DNA of 64,000 nt, from the NCBI GenBank assembly GCA_963702435.1, contig CAVPCR010000002.1, forward strand, positions 20,999 through 84,998, written 5' to 3'. The DNA comes from Candidatus Eiseniibacteriota bacterium. Its GTDB lineage: Bacteria; Eisenbacteria; RBG-16-71-46; CAVPCR01. A program made the translations under genes and the position numbers. The notes below the pieces were generated by a model. That model searched no databases. It was not told the origin of the DNA and saw nothing but the letters and a program-made list of their open reading frames with translations. Of the stretch, positions 14,288-30,514 are shown in pieces. Every line of letters starts with the position of its first letter. The stretch's first letter is position 1.

Positions 14288-14442
14288 GCTTGCGCCGGTC
14301 CGACCACGCGTAACGGCATTCATGGCGGTCGGTTGCCTGCAACCGACCGCCGCGCATATGGGGACGCATCTCTGCGGGGAACGAGCATGAGCCGAGTCCG
14401 GGGAGCCGGAAGGTGGTGGAGGCCGGCCGCCGTGGCGGGCGA

Positions 14443-14478
14443 GGCCGTCCTGGCCGTCCTGGCCGTCCTGGCCGCCCT
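14443..14478. repeat. 9-nt tandem repeat (GGCCGTCCT x3 plus a variant)
   Basis: Direct inspection; lies in the trxA-leuS spacer. Confidence 0.7.
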
Positions 14479-14613
14479 GCCCGGCGCCATGCCCGCCTCG
14501 TCGCCGGCGCCCGCGGCTTTAGCCGGCCCCGCGGCCACCGCGCGGGAGCCGGGACGTGGCGGCCGCGAGCGGGAGCCGCTAGGCGCCCGGGGCCTCGCGA
14601 AGGGGATGAGGAC

Positions 14614-17381
<2,768 letters not shown>

Positions 17382-17480
17382 TGATATCATCCGCGGCCGC
17401 AGTCCACGGCCCTCGCCGTGGGTTCCCGGCGGCGCCCACCGCCCCCCCCGGGCCCGCTTCACCATGAGCGATCCGAAACG

Positions 17481-18836
17481 ATGTTGATAGAAAGAGCATT
17501 CCTGTCCCCGTCCGCATGCCGCGTCCGGCCGGCCGGTGCGTTCCGCGCGACCCTGATCGTCCCGGCGATCCTCGCCGCCCTGTCGCTGCCCGCCCCGAGC
17601 CAGGGCGCGCCGAAACAGATCAAGATCCAGCTCGCACCGAAGACCGGGGTGCTCCCTCTCGTGCAGATCCCGGCCGTACTCCCGATCCCGCTCGGTACCG
17701 AGCCGGGGGAGGTCCTCGCGGCCAGGCCGCAGGATCCGGGCCTAGGCGTGCTCTACGGCGTGCTCCAGAACGCCAGTCCGGACGGAGCCTTGACGGTCGC
17801 CGTTCTCAAGCAGCCCGACGGCAGCGAGCAGGTCATCCTCGATCTCAACGACAACGAGGATCTGACGGACGACCAGCGACATACCTGGACCGGATCCTAC
17901 GGCCCTGTCGTCAAGGGCGTGCCCACGCTCCCGATGTTCGAGGTGCAGATCCGGCGCACTTGCCCCTCCGCCAGCGCGCCCGTCGACATCGCCGTCACTT
18001 TCCGGCGCTACGACAAGAACAAGGCGGCGGGCCGCGCCGCCGTGGGCCTCACCAACGGCATCCTGGCCAATCTCGACAGCTATACCGAGGGCACGGTCCG
18101 CCTCGGCGCAAAGTCCTACAAGGTCGCGCTCATGCCGGTCCAGTTCGCCGGCGCCGAGAGCCCGTTCAGCCATCCGGGCACGGCGATCATCTTCGACGTG
18201 AACGGCGACGGACAGCTCGACGGCCATCCGTTCCGTGGCGGCGAGCGATTCTACCTGGGAGCGCCCTTCATGATCGACGGCCAGGGCTACAAGGTGGTCG
18301 ATGCGAGCTGCGACGGCCGGAGCGTGATCCTCGAGCCCGTGGATGCAGCCACCGTGGCCGCCAGCCAGCAGCCGCCGGCGGCCGCCCCGAGCACGCCGAC
18401 TGCTGCGCTCGCTCCCGGCCAGCGCGCCCCGGACTTCGCCCTCGCCACGATCGAGGGGGACTCGATCCGCCTGAGCGACTACCGGGGCAAGGTGGTGCTC
18501 CTCGACTTCTGGGCGACCTGGTGCGGTCCCTGCCGCATGGAGATGCCCTACGTGAAGAGCGCCTTCGAGCGCTACAACAAGCGCGGGCTCGAGGTGATCG
18601 GCGTGAGCCTCGACAACACGCCGACCGAGGTGCGCGCCTACACCAAGATGGGCGGCATGCCATGGCCCCAGATCCTGCAGGGCCGCGGCACGATGACCCA
18701 GCTCAAGAAGGACTACGGCATTCGCTCCATCCCCGCAGCCTTTCTGATCGACCAGAAGGGGAACATCGCCGCGACGCATCCGCGGGGCGAGGGTCTGCTC
18801 ACGGCGATCGAAAATCTGCTCGGCGACGGCAGCTAG
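17481..18836 (+). CDS. Secreted protein with unknown N-terminal domain and C-terminal TlpA/ResA-like thioredoxin domain
   Basis: Signal peptide; Pro/Ala linker; APDFAL...GKVVLLDFWATWCGPCRMEMP...IPAAFLIDQKG. Confidence 0.88.
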   Translation: MLIERAFLSPSACRVRPAGAFRATLIVPAILAALSLPAPSQGAPKQIKIQLAPKTGVLPLVQIPAVLPIPLGTEPGEVLAARPQDPGLGVLYGVLQNASPDGALTVAVLKQPDGSEQVILDLNDNEDLTDDQRHTWTGSYGPVVKGVPTLPMFEVQIRRTCPSASAPVDIAVTFRRYDKNKAAGRAAVGLTNGILANLDSYTEGTVRLGAKSYKVALMPVQFAGAESPFSHPGTAIIFDVNGDGQLDGHPFRGGERFYLGAPFMIDGQGYKVVDASCDGRSVILEPVDAATVAASQQPPAAAPSTPTAALAPGQRAPDFALATIEGDSIRLSDYRGKVVLLDFWATWCGPCRMEMPYVKSAFERYNKRGLEVIGVSLDNTPTEVRAYTKMGGMPWPQILQGRGTMTQLKKDYGIRSIPAAFLIDQKGNIAATHPRGEGLLTAIENLLGDGS

Positions 18837-18902
18837 TCTGCCGCCGGCGGCGGGACCCTTCCCCGGCAGATGGCTCCCGCGCGCCGCGGAGCCGGAAAGG
18901 TG

Positions 18903-21900
18903 ATGCACGGCATGCGCTGCCCGGAGCGAGATCACGGCAAGGGGGCCGGGACTGGCCGGCGGCGGGCCACGCTCGCCGCCTTTGCGGCGCTCTCGACGCT
19001 CGCCGTTCTCGTCGCGATCCCGCTCTGCGCCGGGGCGGCCGCCGCCGCGCCCGGCGCGGAGCTCACGATCGCCGCCGCTCCCACCGCCCGGCAGCTCACC
19101 CTCCGTTTTTCACGCGATGCCGTCGTTTTCGACGGCGCGCCGGCGGGGGAGAGCGTAGCGCTCGCGACCGGCGGCGCGGGAGCTGTCGACGGCGCCCTGC
19201 TCCGTCTCGTCCTCCGCGTGGACGACGATTTCCGCGCCGACTCGTGCCGGGTCGTCGCGAGGACCGCGGCGGATATCGGCCGCGAGGCCGCGGACCTCGC
19301 CCCCGCGGCGCTCGCCGGGCTCGCCGGGCCCGCCGCCACGGTGGACGGGGAGTCCTGGCTGCGCGGGCGCCGGCTCGTGCATCTCACCGTCCGCCCTCTC
19401 GCTCTCGACGCGCCGAACGGCCGGCTCGAGCTCGCGACCGAGCTCGTGCTCGAGCTCGCCGGCCGGAGCGATCCGGCGCGCGGCCTGGCCCCGCGGGCTG
19501 CGCCCTGGGAGGCGAAGGTCGAGGCGATGCTCGCCGCGGCCGCGATTGACCTGCGCCGGGAGGCCGCGGCGCCGAGCGACGCCCTGCTCGGCCCGGTCGT
19601 CCCGCCGGCCACGAGCGCCCTCTGGAGCCCAACCTTCCGCCCGACCGCCGACGGTAGCGCCGTCGAATGCGTCATCGTGACACCGCAGGCCCTGGCCGGG
19701 CCCTTCCAGGAACTCGCCGCGTGGAAGACCGCGAAGGGCGTGCAGACCACCGTGCGCACGCTCGAGTGGATCCGGGCCACCTACCCGAACGGGATCGACC
19801 AGGCCGAGCAGCTCCGTTTCTTCCTCGCCGACGCCTACGAGCACTGGGGCACGCTCTGGGTGCTCCTCGGCGGCGACTCGGACCAGGTCCCCGTGCGTTA
19901 CGCGACGCATGCGCTCAACATCCCGCCCTCCCTCGTCCCCACCGACCTCTACTACAGCTGTCTCGACGGGAACTGGAACCTCGACGGCGATGCGGCCTTC
20001 GGCGAGGGGCGGCCGCCCGGGCAGACCACGGGCGGGGACGAGGCCGATCTCGCTCCCGACGTCTTCGTCGGACGCGCTCCGGTCTCGACGGCGGGGGCCG
20101 CCCAGATCCTCGTCGACAAGCTGATCGCCTACGAGCGGGGCGCCGCCACCGATGCGCGCTACCCGGCCTCGGTGCTCCTCCTCGGCGAGCGGCTCTCGCC
20201 CACGCTCGACGGCGCGGCCTACTGCGAGCAGGTGCGCGCGCGCCTCCCCGCCGGCCTCCGCACGGCGCGCCTCTACGAGAACCACGCCGCGTATCCGGGA
20301 GCGCTGCCCGAGACGCGCCGCGTGGTCATCGACTCGATGAACGCCGGCTTCGGCATCGTCCATCACGTGGGCCACGGATTCCGGAACACGATGTCGGTGG
20401 GGGACGAGAGCCTGCAGAACGCGGACATCGACGCGCTCGTGAACGGAGCGCGGCAATCGGTCGTCTATGCGGTCAACTGCGCCTCCACGGCCTTCGACTA
20501 CAACGCGATCGGCGAGCGCTTCCTGAAGAACGCGGCCGGCGGCGGGGTCGCCTACATCGGGAGCTCCCGCGTCGCGTATACGGGGGAGTCCCTCCCGCTC
20601 CAGAATGCGTTCTACGACGTCGTCTTCGCCGACAGCGTGACCGCAGTGGGCGCGGCGCACGCGCTCGCCAAGGTTCCGTTCATCGGGGCGGCGGTGAGCG
20701 AGACGCCGGCGCGCTGGCTCCAGTTCTCGCTCGTGCTCCTCGGCGATCCCGAGACGCCGATCTGGCGGCGGGGACCGGTCCCCATCGCCGCCGTCCACGC
20801 CGGCTCCTTCCAGCTCGGGACGAACGCCTTCACGGTCACGGCCAGCGCGGGCGGGGCGCCGCTCGCGGGAGCACGCGTGGCGCTCGTCAAGTCGGGCGAG
20901 CCGTACACGGTGGGGACGACGGGAGCGAACGGGGTCGCGAGCCTGCCGTACAATCCATCCACCACCGGCCCCTTCACGGTGACCGTAACCCGGCCGGATC
21001 TCCGGCCCTACTCCGGGACGTCCACGGTGACCGCGGCGACGAGTCCGTTCCTGCACTTCGTGCAGGTGACGATCAACGATGACTCGACCCCGCCCTCGAT
21101 CGGCAACGGGAACGGCGCGCCCGAGGCGGGGGAGACGCTCGAGCTCCGCATCATGCTCAAGAACGCAGGCCCCACGGCAGCCACCGGCGTGAGCGGCACG
21201 CTGAGCGTGGTCGGGGACGGGAGCCCGGTCGCGATCACGACCCCCACCGTGAGCTACGGGACCCTGGCCGCCCAGGGGCAGTCCTTCGGCGCGGGACGCT
21301 TTGTCGCCCGCATCCTGCCCTCCGCGCCCGATGCGTATGCGCCGGTCTTCCGGATCGCGATCGCCAGCGGGCAGGGGAGCTTCACCGACACCTTCGTCCT
21401 GCCCGTGCGCCGGAGCCTGGTCGAGCACGCGAGCCATGTCCTCGCCGACCCGCCGCCTTTGGGCAACGGAAACGGCGCCGCCGAGGCCGGCGAGGCGGTC
21501 ACCTACACGATCACGGCGATCAATCGCGGACCTGGCCGCGCCGACCAGGTGCGGGTGACGCTCCGCGTCCTCGACCGCACGACCGGCGCGCCGCATCCGG
21601 GGGTCACCGTCACCGATGCCGCGGCAGACTTCGGCGATCTCACGGCCGGCTCGACCCGCGCTGCGGATCCGCTCGCCTTCACGCTCGGCGGCGGCGTCGC
21701 CCCGGGCGCCCTCCGCCTCGAGCTCACCTGGCGCGACCGCTACGGCGTGATCGAGATCGCCCGCTCGGATCTCGAGCCGCCGCCGCCGGTCGCCGGTCTC
21801 CACGGGCATGGCACCGCGCGGAGTATCACGCTCGCGTGGGCGGCGCCCGCAGCGCCGAGCGATGTGCGCGGGTACGACGTGCTCCGCGCGACGAGCGCCG

Positions 21901-23717
21901 CCGGGCCGTTCTCCCGCGTCAACATCTATCCGGCCGCGGGGGCGACGACGTACGAGGATGCGGGGCTCCCGTCCCTCATGCGCTTCTACTACGCGGTGGT
22001 CGCCCGCGACTCCTCGCACAACGCGAGCGTTGCGTCGGCCGTCATCTCGGCGACGACGACTCCCCCCCTCGCCACCGGCTGGCCGATCGAGATGGGTCAG
22101 GAGACATCGGCCGGCATCGCGTGCGACGACCTCGACGGCGACGGCGATCTCGAGATCGTGACCGGCGCCGATGCCGTCTACGCCTGGCATGCCGACGGCA
22201 CCGAGTTGCGGGACGGCGACGACCTCCCGAACACGAGCGGCGTCTTCACCACGGACGGCCAGAGCGCGGACTTCGGCTTCCACGCCACGCCGGCGCTCGC
22301 CGATCTGACCGGAGACGGGGACGTCGAGATCATCGCGGTGGCCTGGACCGAAGCCCAGGTCTTCGTGTGGAACGCCGACGGCTCGCGCGAGCCGGGATGG
22401 CCGCAGCCGATCGGGGGCGACTACAACTGGGCCTCGCCGGCCGTCGGCGATCTCGACCTCGACGGACGGCTCGAGATCGTGGTCGCCTCCGGCTACCAGG
22501 GGAAGGTGTTCGCCTGGCACCACGACGGGACCGAGGTCGCCGACGGCGACGGGAATCCCGCTACACACGGCGTCCTCTTCGCGACGGGCAGCGCGTACCT
22601 GTACTCGTCGCCGGGGATCGCCAACATCGACGCGGAGTCACGACCCGAGATCGTCATCGGCAGTCAGAGCGCGGACGGCAAGGTCCATGCGATCAAGGTG
22701 AACGGGCTGCCGGCCGTGGGCTGGCCGGTCGCGACGCACGGTCCGGTGACTGCGAGCCCGACGTTCGCCGATCTGGACGGCGACGGGCGGCACGAGGTGC
22801 TCTTCGCCTCGGAGTCGGATTCGGTCTTCATCATGCGCGGCGACGGCTCGCGCTACCCGGGCTGGCCGCGGCCGGCCTTCACCAACGCGGCGTTCGGCCA
22901 CACGAGCTCGCCGGTGCCCGCCGATCTGGATCAGGACGGACAGCTCGACATCGTGTACGCCGCCAACGACGGGCGGCTCCACGCCTGGCGGCGCACGGGT
23001 GATCCGCTCCCCGGGTTCGCCGACGTGCGCTTCGCCACGGAAGCGCTCGGCCAGGACGCGACGCAGGCCACCCCCGCGATCGCCGACGTGGACGGCGACG
23101 GCCGGCTCGAGGTCCTCCTCGGCGCCGAGAACGGGCACATCTACGGCTGGAACCACGACGGGAGCGAGCTCGAGGGCTTTCCGATCGCGATCGACGGCGA
23201 GGTGCGGGCCGGGGTCTCGGTATGGGATATCGATCGGGACGGCCTCGTCGAACTGGCGGCGGCGTCCTACGACCGCCGGGTCTATGTCTGGGACCTCCCC
23301 GGCCCGGTCCGCGGCGATCGGATGCCCTGGCCCTTCTTCCGGCACGACATGCGGAACTCCGGCCGCTACGGCGCCGACGTGAACTCGATCGGCGTGGGGG
23401 AGGAGGAAGCCCCGACGGCAGGCGCCGCGGCGCTCGTCCTCTATCCCGCCGTGCCGAACCCGTTCAATCCGGAGACGACGATTCGTTTCCTCGTGCCCGG
23501 GGAGACCAGGGGAGCGCGGCCGGTCCGGCTCCGTATCCTCGACCCCGCGGGGCGCGTCATCCGCACCCTGGCCGACGGATCCTTCGGCACCGGGGAGCAG
23601 GCCGTGCGCTGGGACGGGCGCACCGCGCGGGGGGATCGCGCCGCGAGTGGGGCCTACTTCCTCGACCTCGAGGCGGGAGGGGAGCGCCGGACCGGTAAGG
23701 TCATCCTCCTCAAGTAG
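18903..23717 (+). CDS. C25 (gingipain-family) cysteine peptidase with Ig-like, FN3, FG-GAP repeat and FlgD/T9SS-like C-terminal domains
   Basis: WVLLGGDSDQVP, TDLYYSCLDG, VFVGRAP, putative catalytic HVGHG and VNCAS, LLGDPE; many DLDGDGxxEIV repeats; PNPFNPETTIRF...WDG...SGAYF...KVILLK. Confidence 0.9.
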   Translation: MHGMRCPERDHGKGAGTGRRRATLAAFAALSTLAVLVAIPLCAGAAAAAPGAELTIAAAPTARQLTLRFSRDAVVFDGAPAGESVALATGGAGAVDGALLRLVLRVDDDFRADSCRVVARTAADIGREAADLAPAALAGLAGPAATVDGESWLRGRRLVHLTVRPLALDAPNGRLELATELVLELAGRSDPARGLAPRAAPWEAKVEAMLAAAAIDLRREAAAPSDALLGPVVPPATSALWSPTFRPTADGSAVECVIVTPQALAGPFQELAAWKTAKGVQTTVRTLEWIRATYPNGIDQAEQLRFFLADAYEHWGTLWVLLGGDSDQVPVRYATHALNIPPSLVPTDLYYSCLDGNWNLDGDAAFGEGRPPGQTTGGDEADLAPDVFVGRAPVSTAGAAQILVDKLIAYERGAATDARYPASVLLLGERLSPTLDGAAYCEQVRARLPAGLRTARLYENHAAYPGALPETRRVVIDSMNAGFGIVHHVGHGFRNTMSVGDESLQNADIDALVNGARQSVVYAVNCASTAFDYNAIGERFLKNAAGGGVAYIGSSRVAYTGESLPLQNAFYDVVFADSVTAVGAAHALAKVPFIGAAVSETPARWLQFSLVLLGDPETPIWRRGPVPIAAVHAGSFQLGTNAFTVTASAGGAPLAGARVALVKSGEPYTVGTTGANGVASLPYNPSTTGPFTVTVTRPDLRPYSGTSTVTAATSPFLHFVQVTINDDSTPPSIGNGNGAPEAGETLELRIMLKNAGPTAATGVSGTLSVVGDGSPVAITTPTVSYGTLAAQGQSFGAGRFVARILPSAPDAYAPVFRIAIASGQGSFTDTFVLPVRRSLVEHASHVLADPPPLGNGNGAAEAGEAVTYTITAINRGPGRADQVRVTLRVLDRTTGAPHPGVTVTDAAADFGDLTAGSTRAADPLAFTLGGGVAPGALRLELTWRDRYGVIEIARSDLEPPPPVAGLHGHGTARSITLAWAAPAAPSDVRGYDVLRATSAAGPFSRVNIYPAAGATTYEDAGLPSLMRFYYAVVARDSSHNASVASAVISATTTPPLATGWPIEMGQETSAGIACDDLDGDGDLEIVTGADAVYAWHADGTELRDGDDLPNTSGVFTTDGQSADFGFHATPALADLTGDGDVEIIAVAWTEAQVFVWNADGSREPGWPQPIGGDYNWASPAVGDLDLDGRLEIVVASGYQGKVFAWHHDGTEVADGDGNPATHGVLFATGSAYLYSSPGIANIDAESRPEIVIGSQSADGKVHAIKVNGLPAVGWPVATHGPVTASPTFADLDGDGRHEVLFASESDSVFIMRGDGSRYPGWPRPAFTNAAFGHTSSPVPADLDQDGQLDIVYAANDGRLHAWRRTGDPLPGFADVRFATEALGQDATQATPAIADVDGDGRLEVLLGAENGHIYGWNHDGSELEGFPIAIDGEVRAGVSVWDIDRDGLVELAAASYDRRVYVWDLPGPVRGDRMPWPFFRHDMRNSGRYGADVNSIGVGEEEAPTAGAAALVLYPAVPNPFNPETTIRFLVPGETRGARPVRLRILDPAGRVIRTLADGSFGTGEQAVRWDGRTARGDRAASGAYFLDLEAGGERRTGKVILLK

Positions 23718-23842
23718 CGCCGAGGGCGCGCGGAATCCCCCTGGAAGCGATTGCGATAGATAGAATTGAATGCCTTGTTTAGACTGCTTTCGAGAGTCCG
23801 GCGACCATCCCGGGCCGGCCGCCGCCTCGACCAGGTAAGGGG

Positions 23843-23871
23843 TTGACCGGCCATCGGATGACGTCTAGCAT
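23843..23871 (+). promoter_or_regulatory. Sigma-70-type promoter of the TWGxIK paralog array
   Basis: TTGACC-17 nt-TAGCAT, preceded by an AT-rich tract at about 23745-23790. Confidence 0.6.
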
Positions 23872-24050
23872 TAACCGGGGGCGAGGACGTGCCCCACGGA
23901 CGGGCGAAGGGTATCGTCCGCCGCTCTTCCGTCTGACCGCCAGGCGAGAGGGGTGTTCGAGGCGCGGGTCGAAGCCGGACTCCAAGGCCGCGTGGTCCCC
24001 GCGACCGGCGAGGATTTGGCAATCCACATTTGAGGAGGAGGTCGTTCGAA

Positions 24051-24674
24051 ATGCGCGTTGCGTCTGTGTTCATGGCCATCCTCGCGCTCGTCGCGAGCAG
24101 CACCGCTTTCGCGGGCAACAACCCGCAGGTCACCCTTCCGTTGCACGCCAAGGCCTCGAGCTTCGAGGCGTGTACCGGGCTCGCCCCGGTGGACTGCCTG
24201 TCGAACCGGCCCACGGTGGACGTGAGCGCCGGCACCGTGGCCGTCTTCCTGACCATGATGAACTACGTCGGGGTCGCTGGCGTCCAGACGGCCTTCGACA
24301 ATCCGAACAACTGGACCTTCACCTTCGGTCTCTGGGACTGCCAGGTCGGGCAGCTCAATGCGGTGACCCCGGTAGCGCCCTTCGGCGCGACGTCAGGCTC
24401 GATCACGACCGCGTTCAACTGCGTGAGCAGCGGAGCCCTCATTCCAGTCGGGCGTATGTTCTTCATCGCGACGACCGGATGCCTCTCGCAGATCCAGTCG
24501 AGCTATCCGTTCGGCATTCACGCCCTCGACTGCGCGGGCGGCATCGACCAGATCACCGACAACGAGCAGGGGCGGCTCGGGAAGATCTGCGTCGGCTCGG
24601 GCGGCGTCGACGCGTGCGACCCGATCTCGCCGGTCAACCCGGCGACCTGGGGGCAGATCAAGGCGGCGTACTAG
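24051..24674 (+). CDS. Secreted 8-Cys protein with C-terminal TWGQIKAAY motif, paralog 1
   Basis: Strong RBS GAGGAGGAGG; Sec signal ending TAFA; clear homology to 25357 and 26057. Confidence 0.9.
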   Translation: MRVASVFMAILALVASSTAFAGNNPQVTLPLHAKASSFEACTGLAPVDCLSNRPTVDVSAGTVAVFLTMMNYVGVAGVQTAFDNPNNWTFTFGLWDCQVGQLNAVTPVAPFGATSGSITTAFNCVSSGALIPVGRMFFIATTGCLSQIQSSYPFGIHALDCAGGIDQITDNEQGRLGKICVGSGGVDACDPISPVNPATWGQIKAAY

Positions 24675-24745
24675 CTCGTCGCGTACAGATCGAGTTTATA
24701 CAGCCTGAGCGCGAGGGTTCGCCCTCGCCGGGGCTGCAGGTGGAT

Positions 24746-24782
24746 CGGGCGGCTCCCGCAAGGAGCCGCCCGGTCTTGTTTC
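24746..24782 (+). terminator. Rho-independent terminator
   Basis: 11-bp stem CGGGCGGCTCC / GGAGCCGCCCG followed by GTCTTGTTTC; a second UUCG-loop hairpin lies at 24711-24728. Confidence 0.8.
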
Positions 24783-24911
24783 GAGGCGGGTACGGCTGCC
24801 GGGCGAAAGGTGCCCGCGGCGCGACCCGTGTCGCGGGAGCCGGGGCCGCGCTATACTGGCGGCGTACCCGCCCGGCGTGTTCGGTCCGCAGGGCGTACAA
24901 GGAGGCCGCCC

Positions 24912-25282
24912 GTGAACTCCGTGCGTTCATGGAGAGCGTCGATCGCGGCTGTCCTGCCCGTCGACTGCCGGAACGTCTACCCGACGGTTGACGTGAATCC
25001 CGGCCCGACGGTCATCTTCCTCTTCGTCATGAACCACGGCGGGGTTGCGGGCGTGCAGACCGCCTTCGAACCCGCCCCGAGCTGGACCTTCGCGTTCGGA
25101 CTCTGGGACTGCCAGCTCGGCCCGCTCTCGATCGTGGTCCCCGCTCCGCCGTTCGGGCCCGGACCGGGAACGAGTATCGCCTGGGGCGGATCTGCGTGGG
25201 TCAGGGCGGCTACGCTTCCTGCTTCGTGATGCCGGCGGTCGAGGCGGCGACCTGGGGGAGCATCAAGGCGCAGTACGACTGA
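24912..25282 (+). pseudogene. Internally deleted, frameshifted paralog 2 of the TWGxIK family
   Basis: RBS GGAGG plus GTG; LPVDC..GVQTAF..GLWDCQ..PPFGP in one frame and EYRLGRICVG..ATWGSIKAQYD in another; signal core and central ~55 codons are missing. Confidence 0.85.
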
Positions 25283-26027
25283 GCAGGGGAGGGCGAGCCG
25301 GCGAACCAGCGATCCCGCCGGATCGTGGGGGAGCCGGACAACCGGAGGGTTCTTCCATGAACTCAGTACTCCAACCGAGGACGGCCCTCGTGGCCGGCCT
25401 CCTTGCGACATGCGTGGCGACGGCGGCATCGGCCGGTCTGAACCCGAACTTCACGCTGCCTCTTCATGCCAAGGCGTCGAGCTTCGAGCCGTGCGACGGC
25501 TACCTGCCAGTCGACTGCGTGAACCATCTGCCGGTCGTCAACATCGCGCCCGGGCCGACCGCGGTGTTCCTCTTCGTCATGAACTACGCCGAGGTGGCCG
25601 GGGTGCAGACCGCTTTCCAGCCGGACGGGAGCTGGATCTTCCTCTTCGGCCTCTGGGATTGCCAGCCCGGGCAGCTGAACGCGGTGATGCCGGCTCCACC
25701 GTTCGGCCCGACCGCCGGTTCGATCGCGACCGCCTTCAACTGCCTGGCCGGTCCGCAGCTCGCCGTGGTCGGGCGGATGTTCTTCTTCCTGAACACGAAC
25801 GCCAACGGCTGTCTCGAGCAAGTCCAGTCGAGCTATCCGTTCGGTATCTGCGTCATCGACTGCCAGCTCGCGGTGGATCGGATCCTGTCCGGCCAGGAGG
25901 CTCGACTCGGCAAGGTCTGCATCGGCCCGGGCGGCAACGCCCCCTGCGTGCAGACGACCGCAGTCGAGTCGGCGACCTGGGGGCAGATCAAGGCGCAGTA
26001 CCGGTAGCAGGGGAGGGCGAGCCGGCG
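25282..26027 (+). repeat. 22-nt direct repeat AGCAGGGGAGGGCGAGCCGGCG (25282-25303 and 26006-26027)
   Basis: Identical copies at the stop codons of paralogs 2 and 3. Confidence 0.85.
25357..26007 (+). CDS. Secreted Cys-rich protein with C-terminal TWGQIKAQYR motif, paralog 3
   Basis: Signal peptide ending AASA; LPLHAKASSFE, GVQTAF, GLWDCQ, SSYPFG, RLGKVC. Confidence 0.9.
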   Translation: MNSVLQPRTALVAGLLATCVATAASAGLNPNFTLPLHAKASSFEPCDGYLPVDCVNHLPVVNIAPGPTAVFLFVMNYAEVAGVQTAFQPDGSWIFLFGLWDCQPGQLNAVMPAPPFGPTAGSIATAFNCLAGPQLAVVGRMFFFLNTNANGCLEQVQSSYPFGICVIDCQLAVDRILSGQEARLGKVCIGPGGNAPCVQTTAVESATWGQIKAQYR

Positions 26028-26056
26028 GGATCGCTCCGTCTGGCGGGAGGACCGGC

Positions 26057-26698
26057 ATGAGAGCAGGAACTGCGATGCAGGCGATGTCCCTCGCGGTGCT
26101 CGTCTCCACGGCAGCCGCCGCCACCGCCGGCGCCGGTCAGAATGCGTCCTTCCTGCTTCCGCTCCACGCCACGGCGATGACGCAGGGGCCGTGCAGCGCC
26201 TACCAGCCGGTCGATTGCCTCGGCGTGCAGCCGACCGTGGACGTGAGCCCCGGCACCATCGCCGTCTACCTTCTCGCGTTCAATCACAGCCAGCTCGGCG
26301 GCGTGCAGACAGCCTTCGAGCCCGACCCGAGCTGGACCTTCATCTACGGACTCTGGGACTGCCAGCCCGGCCAGCTGACGGCGGTCGCCCCGGCGCCTCC
26401 GTTCGGGCCCCTCGCGGGATCGATCACGACCGCGTTCAACTGCGTCTACGGCCCGTCCATCGCGCCGATCGGTCGCATGATCTTCTCGGCCACGAGCGGC
26501 TGCTTGACGCAGGTCGCCTCGAGCTACCCCTTCGGGACCCATGTCATCGATTGCGGCTTCGAGGTGGACCAGGCGCAACCCGGCGAGGACTACCGGCTCG
26601 GGAAGATCTGCGTCGGGGGCGGCGGCTATGCGGCGTGCACCGGCGGCGGGCAGATCGACCGGGCGACCTGGGGCGGGATCAAGAGCCAGTACCAGTAG
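26057..26698 (+). CDS. Secreted 8-Cys protein with C-terminal TWGGIKSQYQ motif, paralog 4
   Basis: RBS GGAGGA; signal peptide; same conserved blocks as paralogs 1 and 3. Confidence 0.9.
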   Translation: MRAGTAMQAMSLAVLVSTAAAATAGAGQNASFLLPLHATAMTQGPCSAYQPVDCLGVQPTVDVSPGTIAVYLLAFNHSQLGGVQTAFEPDPSWTFIYGLWDCQPGQLTAVAPAPPFGPLAGSITTAFNCVYGPSIAPIGRMIFSATSGCLTQVASSYPFGTHVIDCGFEVDQAQPGEDYRLGKICVGGGGYAACTGGGQIDRATWGGIKSQYQ

Positions 26699-26752
26699 GC
26701 GCCAGGCGCCCTGGAAAGGCGCCGCCGGCCGGGGGAGCCGCTAGCCTACACA

Positions 26753-26780
26753 ACTTGACATAAGATATATTATGCGCCAT
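26753..26780 (-). other. dif: dif site (XerC/XerD chromosome dimer resolution site)
   Basis: Minus strand reads ATGGCGCATAA-TATATC-TTATGTCAAGT, against E. coli dif GGTGCGCATAA-TGTATA-TTATGTTAAAT; intergenic between convergent genes; coding strand bias flips here. Confidence 0.88.
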
Positions 26781-26794
26781 TGAGCCGAGGCCGC

Positions 26795-27373
26795 TCAGGG
26801 GCGGCGGCGGGCCGCCCGGGCGGCGTTGCCGGCCGCAGCAGGCTTCCGGGTTGCGGCTCGGCGTGGCGGCTGCGGGCGCGGGCGCTCGGCCACGACATCC
26901 GGGCGCTGCTCCTCGACCCGCACCTGCTCGATCGCCCCGGCCAGCTCGCGCGCCGCGGCCACGAAGCGCTTGCGGCTTCCGGGGCCGGCGCCCGCAGTCA
27001 CCCGGGCGTAGGCCAGGTCGAGGGCGGACTCGACCCGCTCGACCGCGTGCCGGCCGGCGGCGGTCAAGGCGACGACGACGACCCGGCGGTCGTCCGGCGA
27101 GCTCTCCCGCTTCAGGAGCCCGCCCCGGACCAGCGGATCGAGGGCCCGGGTAACGGTGCTCGGAGCGAGCCCGAGCTCCCGCGCCATCATGGTCATCGCC
27201 GGCCGCCCCATGGCCGCCACGGCGAGCAGCGCGTGCGCCTGCGCGCGCGGCAGTCCGGCCTTGGCGGTGGCCGCGGCCTCGAGCTGACCCACGGCCCGCA
27301 CCAGGCGCCGGAACGCGCGGACGAGATCATCGGCCGGCCGCTCGGTCGCGCCGGCTCTCCCGCTGGTACTCAT
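26795..27373 (-). CDS. MarR family transcriptional regulator
   Basis: ARELGLAPSTVTRALDPLVRGGLLKR...DDRRVVVVALTAAG. Confidence 0.9.
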   Translation of the reverse strand: MSTSGRAGATERPADDLVRAFRRLVRAVGQLEAAATAKAGLPRAQAHALLAVAAMGRPAMTMMARELGLAPSTVTRALDPLVRGGLLKRESSPDDRRVVVVALTAAGRHAVERVESALDLAYARVTAGAGPGSRKRFVAAARELAGAIEQVRVEEQRPDVVAERPRPQPPRRAATRKPAAAGNAARAARRRP

Positions 27374-27520
27374 GTCCGGGACAATAATTGTACTAGACAA
27401 GCATTGCAATGGGGAATCGATGCCGGCTGGGCCCGGCGCGGCGAGCGCTGAATCCGTTCGATCCGCCGCGCCGCGCTGACCGGACAGGCGGCGAGCGCAC
27501 GGGGCGGCCGCACATGGCAG

Positions 27521-27550
27521 AGCGGGGGCCGGTGGTCACCGGCCCCCGCT
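27521..27550. terminator. Perfect 14-bp inverted repeat (terminator-like hairpin) downstream of the CHRD gene
   Basis: AGCGGGGGCCGGTG-gt-CACCGGCCCCCGCT; no clear U-tract. Confidence 0.55.
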
Positions 27551-27577
27551 CCCCAGCGGAACCTCGCCACTCCCCCG

Positions 27578-28057
27578 CTAGTCGAACAGGGTCTTGATCT
27601 GGCCCCAGGTGCCCGGGTCCACGGCGACCGCGTCCAGGCGGATCTGACCGCGGATCTCCCCGCCCGGGAACTGGCTCGTGTGGATGTTGATGTAGGACAG
27701 CCCGTTAATGAGGTCGGCCGCCTGCGCTGCGGTCAGCGGGCCGACCGTCAGGTTGATGGGACTGACCGGAGGCGCCGGCGGGATCAGAGAGAAGCGCACT
27801 CCCGCGTTGACCCCCGGCGGGGCCGGGGCATGGATGTGAGACGCCACGACCGGGGCAAGCAGGCCGCTGAAGGTGCAGCTCACATTGAGCATCATCGCGA
27901 CGTCCAGCACCAGGGTGGCGGAACCCGTGGCGGGCGAGGCATTGGGAGGAACCTCCTGCAACCCATCGAGTGTCGCCGTGAAGGTCTGCGCGGACGCGAC
28001 GCCCGCCCCCAGCACCAAGGCCAGAGCAGCGATCGAGATTCTACCAATGGCGTGCAT
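27578..28057 (-). CDS. Secreted CHRD-domain protein with C-terminal TWGQIKTLFD motif
   Basis: Signal ending ASA; LDGLQEVPPNASPATG, SHIH, YINIHTSQFPGGEIRGQI; RBS AAGGAG. Confidence 0.9.
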   Translation of the reverse strand: MHAIGRISIAALALVLGAGVASAQTFTATLDGLQEVPPNASPATGSATLVLDVAMMLNVSCTFSGLLAPVVASHIHAPAPPGVNAGVRFSLIPPAPPVSPINLTVGPLTAAQAADLINGLSYINIHTSQFPGGEIRGQIRLDAVAVDPGTWGQIKTLFD

Positions 28058-28453
28058 TGAATGGACTCCTTGCGTGACGTGCGGCACTCTCCAGGGGGGC
28101 AGCGGAGAATGCGCACCGGGACTTGCGACAATGCCAGGCTTGCACGCTAGTATGTCATGTCATTGTCCCACGTCAACCGCAAACAGGCATGGGCGGGGGA
28201 CGCCCTCCGGGAAAGCGGGAAGCAAATGCGGGCTCTCCCCTCTCCCTCCTCTTTCTGCTCCTCCTCATCGCATCGCCGGCAGCGATATCGACAGCTCCGA
28301 GGCTCTCGCTCGCTCTTCTCGCTCGAGCAACGAGAGCCCCACCGGCGCCGCGGCCAGCTCGTTGTACTTAACAATCATTGTGGTTACAAAGCGCTAGCGA
28401 GAGATGGCGGCCGCCAACGCCGCGCCGTGACGCGCTGCCGCCGGTGCCCGCGA

Positions 28454-30514
28454 CTACGCGGCCTTGCGGGCCGCGACCGGCAGCGCCGGCGGCGAAGCCG
28501 GTTCCCGATAGAACGCGATCGGTGCGATCGCGAGGCAGTGGGTGGCCACCGCCGCCAGCATCACATCCCAGATCCCCGGAACCGTCGGCCAAGTTGAGAG
28601 CCCGCAGACGAAGCCGACGCCGACCGACATGAGGATCTGGACGATCCAGGTGAGCGTAAGCGCCGGGGCGTGCAGGATGGCGCGCGGCGAGGTGCTCGTG
28701 ACGTCCATCGTCGGCGGCGGGCCGAGGTTCGCCATCACGTCCGGGGTTGCGGCCTTCACCGTGCTCTCGCGCCACGTGCTGAGGCTCGCGCGCAGCCGCC
28801 TCGCCGCGGTCTGGGCGGCGATCGCGTTCCCGGCGCCGAGGGGGATGAGACCGAACACCCCCGAGGAGCCGTCGGCACGCTCCCAGCGCAGTCGCACGGC
28901 CCGCACGCGGATCCACCCCGGGAGGCCGCGATCGAGCCACACCTCCCGGACCTCGGCCGGTGTCAGCGAGAAGCGTGACTCCTCGCCCGCGTAGTCGATG
29001 CGGAGGGGGGTGATGGCAAGGAAGCCGGCGTCCCATTCGGCGAAACCTTCGTAGAGGCGCGGCGCGGCGTGGGGTGCGAGGCCAACGAAGGACTCGCGGC
29101 CACGGCCTGCCTCCCGGACCTCCGGCCACCGTCTGGCCTCCAGCGCCCGGCGCAGCGCCAGCAGCGAGCGCGGCGCAAGCAAAAGCCACGTCAGTTGCCA
29201 GGCCAGGAAGGTGACGAGGATGGCGAGGGCGAGCCCGGCGAGGCGCGACAGCAGCAGGAACTTGAGGATCCAGATCGTGGCGGCGGGGACGAAGACCGAA
29301 ACGGCGAGCAGAGACCACGCCACCTGGTTCTGGGCGCGGCGGCGGAAATCGCTGCCGAAGGCGCGCGGCGCGACCACCGCCTCGGGCATCGCCCACCGCT
29401 CCCCCGCCGCCGGGGTGTGGTCCATGAGATCGATGAGGAGCGCCGGATCGAGCCCGGCGCGGGCCGCCAGGCGCATAGCGCGGCGCTCGAGGGAAGGGTG
29501 CGTGAGCAGGCACTCGCGAGCCCGCGACCAGCGGAGAGGCACCTGGGAGAGGCGAGACAGCCGGGCCAGGCCGGTGACGAGCGCCTCCGGTCTGGCCCCG
29601 AGATCGATGGCCCGAGCATCGGTGGCGAACTCGATGCGGCGCGCAAACGCCAGGTAACCGAGGAGACCCGCGGCCGGCGCGAACACCAGGACCCAGAGGC
29701 CCCCCCAGAAACTCGCCGCGACGGCCAGGGTCAGGAGGAAGAGCCCGCGCGCGAGCTTGTCTGGATCCTTGCGTGCGAGGTGCGCCATCTCATGCGCGAG
29801 CACGGCGTCCACCTCATCGCGATCGAGGTGGTCGAGCAGGACGTCCGTGAGCAGGACCACATTGTTGGTTACCGCGAAGGCATTGGCGAGGCGTACCCGT
29901 CTGAGCGGCACGACGTAGAGCTGCGTTAGCTTCACCCCAGCGCGCGCGGCGATGGCGAAGACCCGATCGCGGAGCTCGCCGCTGGTTACGGCATGAAAGG
30001 TGAGCCCGGCGTTGCGCTGGCGGCGGCCGAGGAGCGTGATCGCGAGGGCGACGGCGACGGCGACGGCGAGCGCTCCGCCGCCGCGCCCCCCGGTCGCGAG
30101 CGCCCCGATGGCCGCGGCGCCTATCGTGAGCGGGAGCAGCGTGCCGGCGAGAAGGAGCAGGGCATCGCGGCGCGCCTCGCTCCAGGTCCAATCAGTGAGC
30201 CCCGCCCGGCGTGCGACATCGAAGCCGAGAGTGGCGAGCGTGGCGAGGGAAACGAGGAGCGGCCCCGCCAGGACTCCCATGGCCACCCCCCACCTGAGCC
30301 AGGGGGCGTTCTCGCTCAGCCCCGCGTGAACTGCCGGCAAGAGGACCCGCAGCGCCGGCGGGAGCCAGAGGAGAGCGGAGACCAGACCCACCCACTGGCT
30401 GCGCTGCATGAAGGCGAAGTACGAGGGGGGCCGCTCGCGCAGGGCGACGCGGTGCGACCACAGAGCAAGCCCCAGGGGAAGGACGAAGGCAGCTACCAGA
30501 ACGACGCCGGCCAT
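28454..30514 (-). CDS. M48 family (HtpX/Ste24-like) membrane zinc metalloprotease with extra TM segments and C-terminal extension
   Basis: ANAFA, EVDAVLAHEMAH, EFATD, THPSLERR. Confidence 0.85.
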   Translation of the reverse strand: MAGVVLVAAFVLPLGLALWSHRVALRERPPSYFAFMQRSQWVGLVSALLWLPPALRVLLPAVHAGLSENAPWLRWGVAMGVLAGPLLVSLATLATLGFDVARRAGLTDWTWSEARRDALLLLAGTLLPLTIGAAAIGALATGGRGGGALAVAVAVALAITLLGRRQRNAGLTFHAVTSGELRDRVFAIAARAGVKLTQLYVVPLRRVRLANAFAVTNNVVLLTDVLLDHLDRDEVDAVLAHEMAHLARKDPDKLARGLFLLTLAVAASFWGGLWVLVFAPAAGLLGYLAFARRIEFATDARAIDLGARPEALVTGLARLSRLSQVPLRWSRARECLLTHPSLERRAMRLAARAGLDPALLIDLMDHTPAAGERWAMPEAVVAPRAFGSDFRRRAQNQVAWSLLAVSVFVPAATIWILKFLLLSRLAGLALAILVTFLAWQLTWLLLAPRSLLALRRALEARRWPEVREAGRGRESFVGLAPHAAPRLYEGFAEWDAGFLAITPLRIDYAGEESRFSLTPAEVREVWLDRGLPGWIRVRAVRLRWERADGSSGVFGLIPLGAGNAIAAQTAARRLRASLSTWRESTVKAATPDVMANLGPPPTMDVTSTSPRAILHAPALTLTWIVQILMSVGVGFVCGLSTWPTVPGIWDVMLAAVATHCLAIAPIAFYREPASPPALPVAARKAA

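Follow-up and report, generated by a model that had tools for sequence, protein, structure and literature searches.

The window analysed here is a stretch of 64,000 nucleotides from Candidatus Eiseniibacteriota bacterium (GenBank assembly GCA_963702435.1, contig CAVPCR010000002.1, positions 20,999 to 84,998 of the forward strand), and our subject is a short C-terminal tail, hereafter the tag, that several of its genes share. Scanning all six frames of the window with the motif [STA]WG.[ILVM]K gave exactly five matches, all of them 3-4 residues before a stop codon. The corresponding tails, each followed directly by the stop, are ISPVNPATWGQIKAAY (24624-24674), MPAVEAATWGSIKAQYD (25229-25282), TTAVESATWGQIKAQYR (25954-26007) and GGQIDRATWGGIKSQYQ (26645-26698) on the forward strand and AVAVDPGTWGQIKTLFD (27578-27631) on the reverse strand. 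Three of the carriers are intact forward-strand genes of what we call family 1, for which no Pfam or NCBIfam family match was found: 24030..24674 (214 amino acids; a signal peptide, a cohesin-like beta-sandwich core, a linker and the tail ...VNPATWGQIKAAY), 25357..26007 (216 amino acids, tail ...VESATWGQIKAQYR) and 26057..26698 (213 amino acids, tail ...IDRATWGGIKSQYQ). Between the first two lies a degraded forward-strand copy in two frames (24954..25282), which is without its N-terminus, has an internal gap of ~65 amino acids and has kept its tail (...VEAATWGSIKAQYD in the three-frame translation). The fifth tail (...VDPGTWGQIKTLFD) closes an open reading frame (ORF) of 169 amino acids on the reverse strand (27578..28087), which a public protein collection lists in a 159-residue form that starts at 28057, and which belongs to the CHRD family (PF07452, E 2.3e-28, 99.8 bits against a cut-off of 24.1, residues 36-149). 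As such, the original prediction, made from the letters of the window, was right that five genes share one tail and that the last of these is an unrelated protein on the opposite strand. It was equally right about the carriers themselves: all four intact ones have signal-peptide-like N-termini, modelled by AlphaFold2 as a low-confidence N-terminal helix in both proteins that were folded, and in none of the carriers is the motif followed by a hydrophobic stretch that could form a transmembrane segment.

The tag is by no means restricted to this window. Across the source genome (G000; an assembly of 4.98 Mb in 6 contigs with 70% G+C, 85% complete), the same motif has 94 six-frame matches, 82 of which lie at most 8 residues from a stop. 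Five permuted or reversed control motifs gave 1-7 matches, with 0-3 of them near a stop, and chance can thus be excluded. Allowing the motif up to 12 residues from the end gives 87 ORFs, 86 of them with a start codon, and these 86 form 43 sequence clusters, the largest having 23 members (family 1 of the window among them) and the second 11. Among the 82 tagged members that were scanned, 26 Pfam families are represented, including Beta_helix (8), NosD (6), PD40 (3), PKD (3) and multihaem cytochrome families (2), with CHRD, DUF4397, LTD and others occurring once each. The tail therefore is a real, modular, domain-independent C-terminal tag on exported proteins, confined to C-termini, and it is not limited to this family plus chance hits, an outcome that the original prediction had named as refuting it.

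Aligned on the tryptophan, the tails yield the profile G-[AP]-[TV]-[AP]-V-E-P-[AST]-T-W-G-x-[IV]-K-[ASN]-x-[YF]-[RK]. All 87 ORFs have the W, the G and the K, and all have T or S before the W. Upstream, V is found in 67, E in 56 and P in 48 of the 87, and Leu takes the [IV] position in five. The Lys is followed by 4-5 residues in 65 of the 87 ORFs (full range 3-12), and a Cys is located 3-18 residues upstream in 57. Since the codons differ between tag copies, this conservation acts on the protein level. One stretch of G000 (contig C4, 1-45000) forms an island of 13 tag genes amid genes that look transposase-like and toxin-antitoxin-like by sequence alone. Several genes of this island were missed by our gene caller, which relies on G+C content at third codon positions (GC3), suggesting an atypical composition there; to go by this island, the tag-gene repertoire may be mobile or fast-evolving.

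Many proteins of G000 end in a different signal. An iterated hidden Markov model (HMM), seeded with the tail of a C25 peptidase in the window, found a FlgD_ig/type IX secretion system (T9SS)-type C-terminal domain (CTD) on 206 G000 proteins, this peptidase included, and not one of the 206 bears the tag. Conversely, 25 tag proteins have untagged paralogues, and in 20 cases these paralogues have a CTD, the tagged proteins being mostly small single-domain counterparts of multi-domain CTD proteins. A natural signal-swap pair is formed by the tag gene T60 and its adjacent tandem paralogue g2767 (contig C5, 50998-52700): the two are 80% identical across 169 amino acids and split directly after WDDARL, where one ends ...VESSSWGQIKNLFQ and the other enters a 90-residue CTD. 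Similar variation is seen among the 2006 homologues of the CHRD protein in the public protein collection. In the best 120 of these 2006, the sequence after FPGGEIRGQI is the strict tag in 77 and PEP-CTERM-like in 4; the remaining 39 have other endings, with many dialects among them (TWS, TMS, TIS, TFS and SWS, with K sometimes replaced by R). For family 1, 118 homologues were found in 5.8 billion proteins, of which 112 bear the strict tag. The tag thus occupies the junction where paralogues bear a T9SS-type CTD and where four CHRD homologues bear a PEP-CTERM.

That four CHRD homologues carry a true PEP-CTERM at this very junction, and that VEP[AST]TW resembles the start of a PEP-CTERM, might suggest that the tail is a degenerate PEP-CTERM handled by an exosortase. 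However, the tail has neither a transmembrane helix nor an Arg cluster. Furthermore, the exosortase model PF09721 has no matches in genomes G000-G004, which are among the tag-richest, and does match three of six genomes of f9, a tag-poor family within the class. This lack of matches in G000-G004 rules out an exosortase/PEP-CTERM mechanism for G000, barring an exosortase too divergent to be recognised, and we find the idea as a whole hardly credible.

The export of the tagged proteins was assessed on the gene set of our own, admittedly crude, GC3-based caller (3825 genes in G000, 76 of them tagged) with a simple heuristic for signal peptides rather than a trained predictor. With the starts fixed as called, signal-peptide-like N-termini are present in 50 of 76 tagged genes and 109 of 206 CTD genes, against 451 of 3543 other genes; with any in-frame start allowed, they are present in 75 of the 87 tagged ORFs and in 260 of a background sample of 600 genes. 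The enrichment for signal peptides and for diverse domains that had been put forward as a check on the tag is thus borne out. Carriers of the tag are also shorter, with a median length of 231 amino acids (76 genes) versus 686 for the CTD set. A modular sorting or anchoring tag, and with it the earlier wording of an 'export or anchoring signal', is well supported by where the tail sits relative to the stop, by its varied passengers and their signal peptides, by the swap with CTD and PEP-CTERM, and by the predicted structure and concerted dialects described below.

AlphaFold2, run with deep alignments on the CHRD tag protein of the window and on the family-1 protein of 24030..24674, places the tail beyond the folded domain, as a loose linker followed by a helix of two turns. 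In the CHRD model the domain blocks reach a predicted local distance difference test score (pLDDT) of 90-98, the block with most of the linker 78 and the tail helix (residues 161-168) ~86. In the family-1 model the core (residues 31-200) has block means of 91-99, the linker (202-204) falls below 50 and the helix (207-213) lies at 56-66. Family 1 has six invariant cysteines, one of which, Cys196, sits 11 residues before the Trp and probably closes the domain through a disulfide. With linker and helix outside the core in both models, the tail does not appear to fold as an integral part of each domain, which had been named as a way in which the original prediction could fail, and the term 'amphipathic' used there fits the predicted two-turn helix.

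Could such a helix do its work without any receptor? With Trp, Ile and Tyr/Phe on one face, and with Lys and Arg, it might tether the protein to a membrane leaflet or to lipopolysaccharide as an interfacial anchor, an analogue being the C-terminal amphipathic helices that some penicillin-binding proteins bear. Consistent with this, the helix is predicted in both models, its residues are typical of membrane interfaces, and no dedicated machinery was found among the neighbours of the tag genes. However, the helix is only ~8 residues long, the invariance of W, G and K, and of T/S before the W, is stricter than a generic lipid-binding helix needs, and the upstream V-E-P is conserved too. Taken together with a shared substitution in a related genome, discussed below, a receptor-free anchor seems improbable to us.

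The fold of the family-1 core brings up yet another option, in which the tail would act as a miniature dockerin that binds non-covalently to a surface scaffold, with cohesin-like family-1 proteins as adaptors. Foldseek indeed places cohesin modules on top for this core, the best at E 2.7e-4, which is a weak likeness; the five matches at E <= 0.001 range from E 2.7e-4 to 1e-3, with query-normalised template-modelling (TM) scores of 0.32-0.44, and the core has no sequence-family match. The membership of family 1 in the largest tag cluster, and the mostly small, single-domain build of tag proteins next to their multi-domain CTD relatives, would suit such an arrangement as well. Against it stand the weakness of the fold match and the generic nature of a beta-sandwich. 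Moreover, family 1 cannot be the general receptor, as it has 118 homologues only, while the tag spans several phyla. We therefore consider docking quite improbable.

Existing models do not seem to describe the tag. Eight tails of 34 amino acids had no match in NCBIfam (June 2026) even at E <= 10, and at the same threshold no Pfam model covers the motif, the only matches being two by chance (E 0.15 and 0.32) and one to the terminal part of the CHRD model. Public homologues are named 'hypothetical protein' or 'CHRD domain-containing protein'. In the openly searchable full texts, which exclude supplements and subscription-only papers, no paper turned up that deals with the motif, or with a sorting tag for the phyla that bear it, in line with the earlier remark that no characterisation of the tag was known. 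The best reading of the tag is that of a new modular export or anchoring signal, undescribed in searchable models and literature.

Its distribution extends well beyond the source genome. A DNA pattern for T-W-G-x-[IVM]-K matched 1-88 times per genome in all 41 same-class genomes (reversed control 0-2 per strand), with five or fewer matches in about nine of the 41. Genomes of family f9, tag-poor by this pattern, still have 1-4 tags, and the class has no clean tag-negative set. When one genome per prokaryotic species was scanned for E-P-x-T-W-G-x-I-K, at least 116 stretches were found, of which 80 loci were listed and 84 matches read. At 65 of the 80 loci listed, the motif closes an ORF, with 2-10 residues left before the stop. 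The records of these loci name Candidatus Eisenbacteria/Eiseniibacteriota, Latescibacterota, Krumholzibacteriota/-ia, Fermentibacteria, Aegiribacteria, Sabulitectum, uncultured Gemmatimonadota and UBP1, or plainly 'bacterium'. We left out the other 15 listed loci, 14 of them as chance, the ORF being short or the match distant from a stop (Alphaproteobacteria, Rhizobium, Tenacibaculum, Saccharomonospora, two Clostridia, two Cyanobacteriota, Dormibacteraeota, Planctomycetota, Verrucomicrobiota, Thiotrichales, Salinisphaeraceae and Deltaproteobacteria). The fifteenth, the Bacteroidales locus L097, is ambiguous, with its match 3 residues before the stop of a 332-residue ORF; a search of that whole genome with the tail HMM gave no matches.

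This tail HMM, built from 86 G000 tails, found 17 and 47 tags at E <= 1e-3 in two Latescibacterota genomes, 69 in a metagenome-assembled genome (MAG) labelled 'Gemmatimonadota', 4 in an Aegiribacteria MAG and 19 in UBP1, and none at the same threshold in five control genomes, two Bacteroidota among them. At E <= 1e-7, 23 genomes from the phylum of genome G042 had no match. It should be noted that these zeros are not absences, since the stricter threshold undercounts heavily (G042 itself has 2 matches there versus 47 at 1e-3), and five of these genomes, retested at 1e-3, had 11, 0, 1, 5 and 4 hits.

Within the class, genome G019 is instructive, with 41 tail-HMM hits at E <= 1 versus one match to the DNA pattern. 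Thirteen of 20 retrieved tails read TWGxLKxxYR, with PT or PV replacing VEP; the other seven showed no tag in the frame that was read. The exchange of Ile/Val for Leu in all 13 readable tails, on unrelated proteins, points to a shared reader, and by the same token counts against an anchor that works without one. The dialects of the CHRD homologues, in which W-G has become W-S, M-S, I-S or F-S, could likewise help to find a co-varying receptor if they turn out to be lineage-confined.

Directly upstream of the family-1 genes, on the same strand, lie the two genes that the original prediction had reported there, a C25 peptidase and a secreted CxxC thioredoxin. The peptidase (18870..23717, forward strand) has 1615 amino acids, with a C25 domain (PF01364, E 2.6e-64, 218 bits), FG-GAP repeats (FG-GAP_3, E 2.3e-31) and a T9SS-type CTD of its own (~23427-23717; FlgD_ig at residues 1547-1602). 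Its alignment to gingipain R2 (4ief_B) matches a GHG and a C at chain positions 211 and 244, which we take to be the catalytic His and Cys, and it clearly belongs to the C25 family. The thioredoxin (17481..18836, forward strand) is an exported TlpA/ResA-like thiol-disulfide oxidoreductase, the CxxC domain of which covers residues 333-452 of a 472-residue ORF starting at 17418 (Pfam AhpC-TSA E 4.5e-26, Redoxin E 2e-22; the ResA-like NCBIfam model stays below its cut-off); we found nothing that ties it to the tag.

The proposal that came with these neighbours was that the C25 protein processes the tag, in the manner of PorU. Either this enzyme, or the expanded C25 family, would then recognise the tail, cut it and attach the protein. 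PorU is itself a C25-type enzyme, and the window protein has the aligned His and Cys. Its closest paralogue, g0373 (58% identity), also precedes a family-1 tag gene, and genomes rich in tags tend to be rich in C25 genes (77 tags and 24 copies in G000, 88 and 21 in G001, 53 and 32 in G004, against 1-5 tags and 2-4 copies in f9). This trend, however, is confounded by secretome size and kinship. The PorU model NF033707 gives the window protein 89 bits, well short of the cut-off of 420, with a match confined to the catalytic core (model positions 365-728), so that the window protein is not a PorU; the true PorU of G000 (471.5 bits, model positions 3-1087) is encoded elsewhere, next to a PorV-family gene (contig C2, 670.8-676.2 kb). 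Of the 16 C25 genes found with a local HMM (Pfam matches give 24), 4 have a tag gene within 5 kb, compared with 12.5% of all genes and 35 of 194 (18%) other CTD genes. Seven other close paralogues with measured distance are 20-76 kb away from any tag gene, and among the 65 foreign tag loci listed, one has a C25 gene. A sortase role for this family is very unlikely in our judgement; the window C25 protein is probably not the processing enzyme of the tag, and both it and the thioredoxin look like ordinary neighbours. Elsewhere in G000 (contig C1, 261838-290769), C25 genes and close paralogues of ~800-1600 amino acids, most with a CTD, form a tandem array, in which g0229, g0230, g0231, g0235, g0236 and g0237 are 52-76 kb from any tag gene.

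Other genes recur near the tags of G000, namely ABC ATPase-like, efflux-like and TldD/PmbA-like ones (assigned by the look of their sequences only), and a family that joins PMT_2 to TPR. The latter raises the possibility of a modification sequon in the tail, in which these membrane GT-C (glycosyltransferase C) enzymes would O-glycosylate the invariant Thr/Ser ahead of W-G, with their periplasmic TPR domain binding the tail. Seven close PMT_2+TPR paralogues exist in G000, four of which lie 7-1964 bp from a tag gene (PMT_2 genes near tags: contig C5, 716992-718872 and 506626-507996; C4, 63154-65040; C3, 164439-166571; a C-terminal TPR in two of three scanned). Around homologues in relatives, 20 loci (+/-5 kb) hold 7 tags versus 2.4 expected (Poisson P 0.012). 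This association was picked post hoc from many neighbour clusters, though, and four of the seven tags are SWG forms that fall outside the expectation, with five of the seven coming from one same-genus relative. Moreover, a GT-C domain is present at 2 of the 65 foreign loci listed, and no member of the family was seen at E <= 1e-30 in the tag-bearing genomes G005, G006, G007 and G012. With 1.5-kb flanks, none of 26 loci contained a tag, but the positive control from the source genome failed as well, the flanks being too short. All in all, we regard a sequon as very doubtful.

What, then, reads the tag? We lean towards a modular C-terminal sorting signal that is read by a shared receptor after Sec export. 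The signal comprises ~18-20 residues. It opens with a flexible linker of Pro, Ala and Thr, in many cases right behind a Cys that closes the domain, continues with V-E-P-x-T, and finishes the protein in a two-turn helix, W-G-x-[IV]-K-x-x-[YF]-[RK]. Once the protein has been exported by Sec, one shared trans-acting receptor would read this tail, and direct the protein across the outer membrane or fix it there, in place of the 90-residue CTD. A periplasmic part of the T9SS might serve as this receptor, in which case the tail would be a natural minimal T9SS signal; this is the version we prefer, if only tentatively. That another shared receptor reads the tail is a possibility we likewise hold with reserve.

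We favour the minimal T9SS signal because the invariant Lys 4-5 residues from the end and the terminal basic residue echo the end of a type A CTD. In the 206 CTDs of G000, the end is made up of [KR] (in 171), a run of four hydrophobic residues and a final [RK] (in 156); the resemblance to K-x-x-[YF]-[RK] is a loose parallel, not homology. In a study on HBP35, the last 22 residues of its CTD suffice for the secretion of green fluorescent protein, and the last 13, which carry the conserved motif-E lysines, are indispensable (PMC10202324). Likewise, the near-invariant Lys near the CTD end is described as functionally important, with its main role thought to be outside the contact with PorV, elsewhere in transport, in another report (PMC10994853). 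The source genome has the parts that such a route would call for, as SprA scores over its cut-off and the PorU mentioned above has a PorV-family protein adjacent. SprA was likewise found in all 41 class relatives, in all five tag-bearing genomes searched from other phyla and in all 41 genomes searched from the phylum of G042.

Several points weigh against a tag read by a shared receptor, and by the T9SS in particular. Neither a receptor nor a processing enzyme was found, and the 65 foreign loci listed have no conserved untagged neighbour beyond CTD and TPR proteins, plus regulators. The original prediction had called for a profile of the tag against T9SS genes, and a co-occurrence with SprA was indeed found in every tag-bearing genome tested; it does not discriminate, though, because every sampled genome in these phyla has SprA. 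At the least, the T9SS is not sufficient for the tag, given that T9SS-bearing genomes with 0-1 tags exist: two Bacteroidota (their T9SS being assumed from the phylum) are without it, and the SprA-bearing genomes G055 and G065, from the phylum of G042, have 0 and 1 tags, respectively. The pocket in which SprA/PorV holds CTDs measures ~1,850 square-angstrom according to PMC10994853, and the tag is far too small to fill it. Comparing the tag profile with the G000 CTD profile, hhalign gave a probability of 0.1% and E 0.48. Finally, the signal-peptide calls all depend on our crude heuristic and gene caller.

Other routes through the T9SS were considered and set aside. The tag as a truncated CTD found nothing in its favour with hhalign, and the models of PorU2 and PorV2 (NF052324 and NF052325) stayed below their cut-offs in G000, G001, G003, G042 and G043. 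The PorV-family model has seven matches in G000, including PorV itself and two pieces of one gene. As dedicated carriers of tag proteins these paralogues were rejected, since, of the modules examined with Pfam, two lie beside TonB-dependent receptors and one has a CTD protein, and no special link to tag genes was seen. Modules of a TonB-dependent receptor (CarboxypepD_reg), a large protein with a real or apparent CTD and a PorV/FadL-like barrel are located at contig C2, 424304-430940 and C6, 423527-430158, with similar layouts at C1, 627719-636285 and C5, 130603-137641. These modules look like uptake loci with a T9SS-delivered surface component.

Three further genes of the window deserve mention. 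A MarR-type regulator (26795-27409, reverse strand) is located between the family-1 genes and the CHRD tag gene. An M48 (HtpX-like) membrane peptidase of 686 amino acids (28454-30514, reverse strand) immediately precedes the CHRD tag gene in the same orientation, with a gap of 366 bp, and does not recur next to other tag genes in G000. Upstream of the thioredoxin, the leucyl-tRNA synthetase gene (14413-17384, forward strand) is scattered across at least four reading frames, with consecutive pieces, HIGH- and KMSKS-type motifs included, in ORFs 14413-15771, 15342-15896, 15911-16753, 16278-17384 and 16642-17223. As this enzyme is essential, its frameshifts suggest insertion or deletion errors in the assembly rather than decay, and call for caution with single frameshifts elsewhere in the genome.

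Earlier C-terminal sorting signals, namely LPXTG, PEP-CTERM and the T9SS CTD, have in each case opened the way to a dedicated machine and to surface-display tools. Knowledge of the present tag would sharpen the prediction of secretomes in phyla known almost only from metagenomes, for tens of proteins per genome that include beta-helix, PKD/PD40, multihaem cytochrome and CHRD proteins. If the T9SS reads it, the tag would be a natural minimal signal and a handle on what this system recognises beyond the CTD fold; if another machine does, that machine would be new. Either way, a compact signal of 18 residues would be a practical export tag. More broadly, the tail could represent a new class of export address, a peptide of ~18 residues with neither a domain nor a membrane anchor, the reader of which could be a new entry route into the T9SS or a separate outer-membrane pathway; we see this as a distinct possibility, short of a probable one. 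In that case the tag would be common to at least five uncultured phyla of the Fibrobacterota-Chlorobiota-Bacteroidota (FCB) group, where it would control a considerable part of the secretome, at tens of proteins per genome, and its receptor could be found by phylogenetic profiling together with co-variation with the dialects (Ile to Leu, and WG to WS, MS or IS).

How does the tag compare with known sorting signals? Like LPXTG, it is a short motif near the C-terminus of diverse exported proteins, and its P-x-T-(W)-G is superficially like P-x-T-G. Tripartite signals such as LPXTG, MYXO-CTERM and GlyGly-CTERM require a membrane-spanning helix and a charged tail, whereas the tag in most ORFs ends 4-5 residues after its Lys. 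With PEP-CTERM it shares its modular nature and its place at the C-terminus of exported proteins, along with a comparable [VP]-E-P-[AST]-[ST] start and, in four CHRD homologues, the same junction; it differs in having neither the transmembrane helix nor the Arg-rich end, and in the absence of an exosortase from G000-G004. Type B CTDs are an alternative class of T9SS signal with dedicated PorV-family carriers, PorP/SprF-like, as set out in the review PMC12398890. The tag might be such an alternative class too, and G000 has its seven PorV-family matches. Yet type B cargo genes adjoin their carrier genes, unlike the tag genes with their lack of a conserved neighbour, and the PorV-like paralogues that we looked into sit with a TonB-dependent receptor and a CTD protein. 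The type A CTD is an Ig-like beta-sandwich of ~80-100 residues, in contrast to the ~18 residues of predicted linker and helix in the tag, which no CTD model matches and which has no profile similarity to it. Conversely, both are C-terminal on Sec-exported proteins of many unrelated families, and the two are interchangeable on paralogues of G000. In both, moreover, a basic residue stands shortly before the end, and the final residue is mostly basic as well. The near-invariant Lys close to the CTD end, as described in PMC10994853 and PMC10202324, has its counterpart in the Lys present in all 87 tags, and a short C-terminal piece with conserved lysines can, in the latter study, suffice for secretion.

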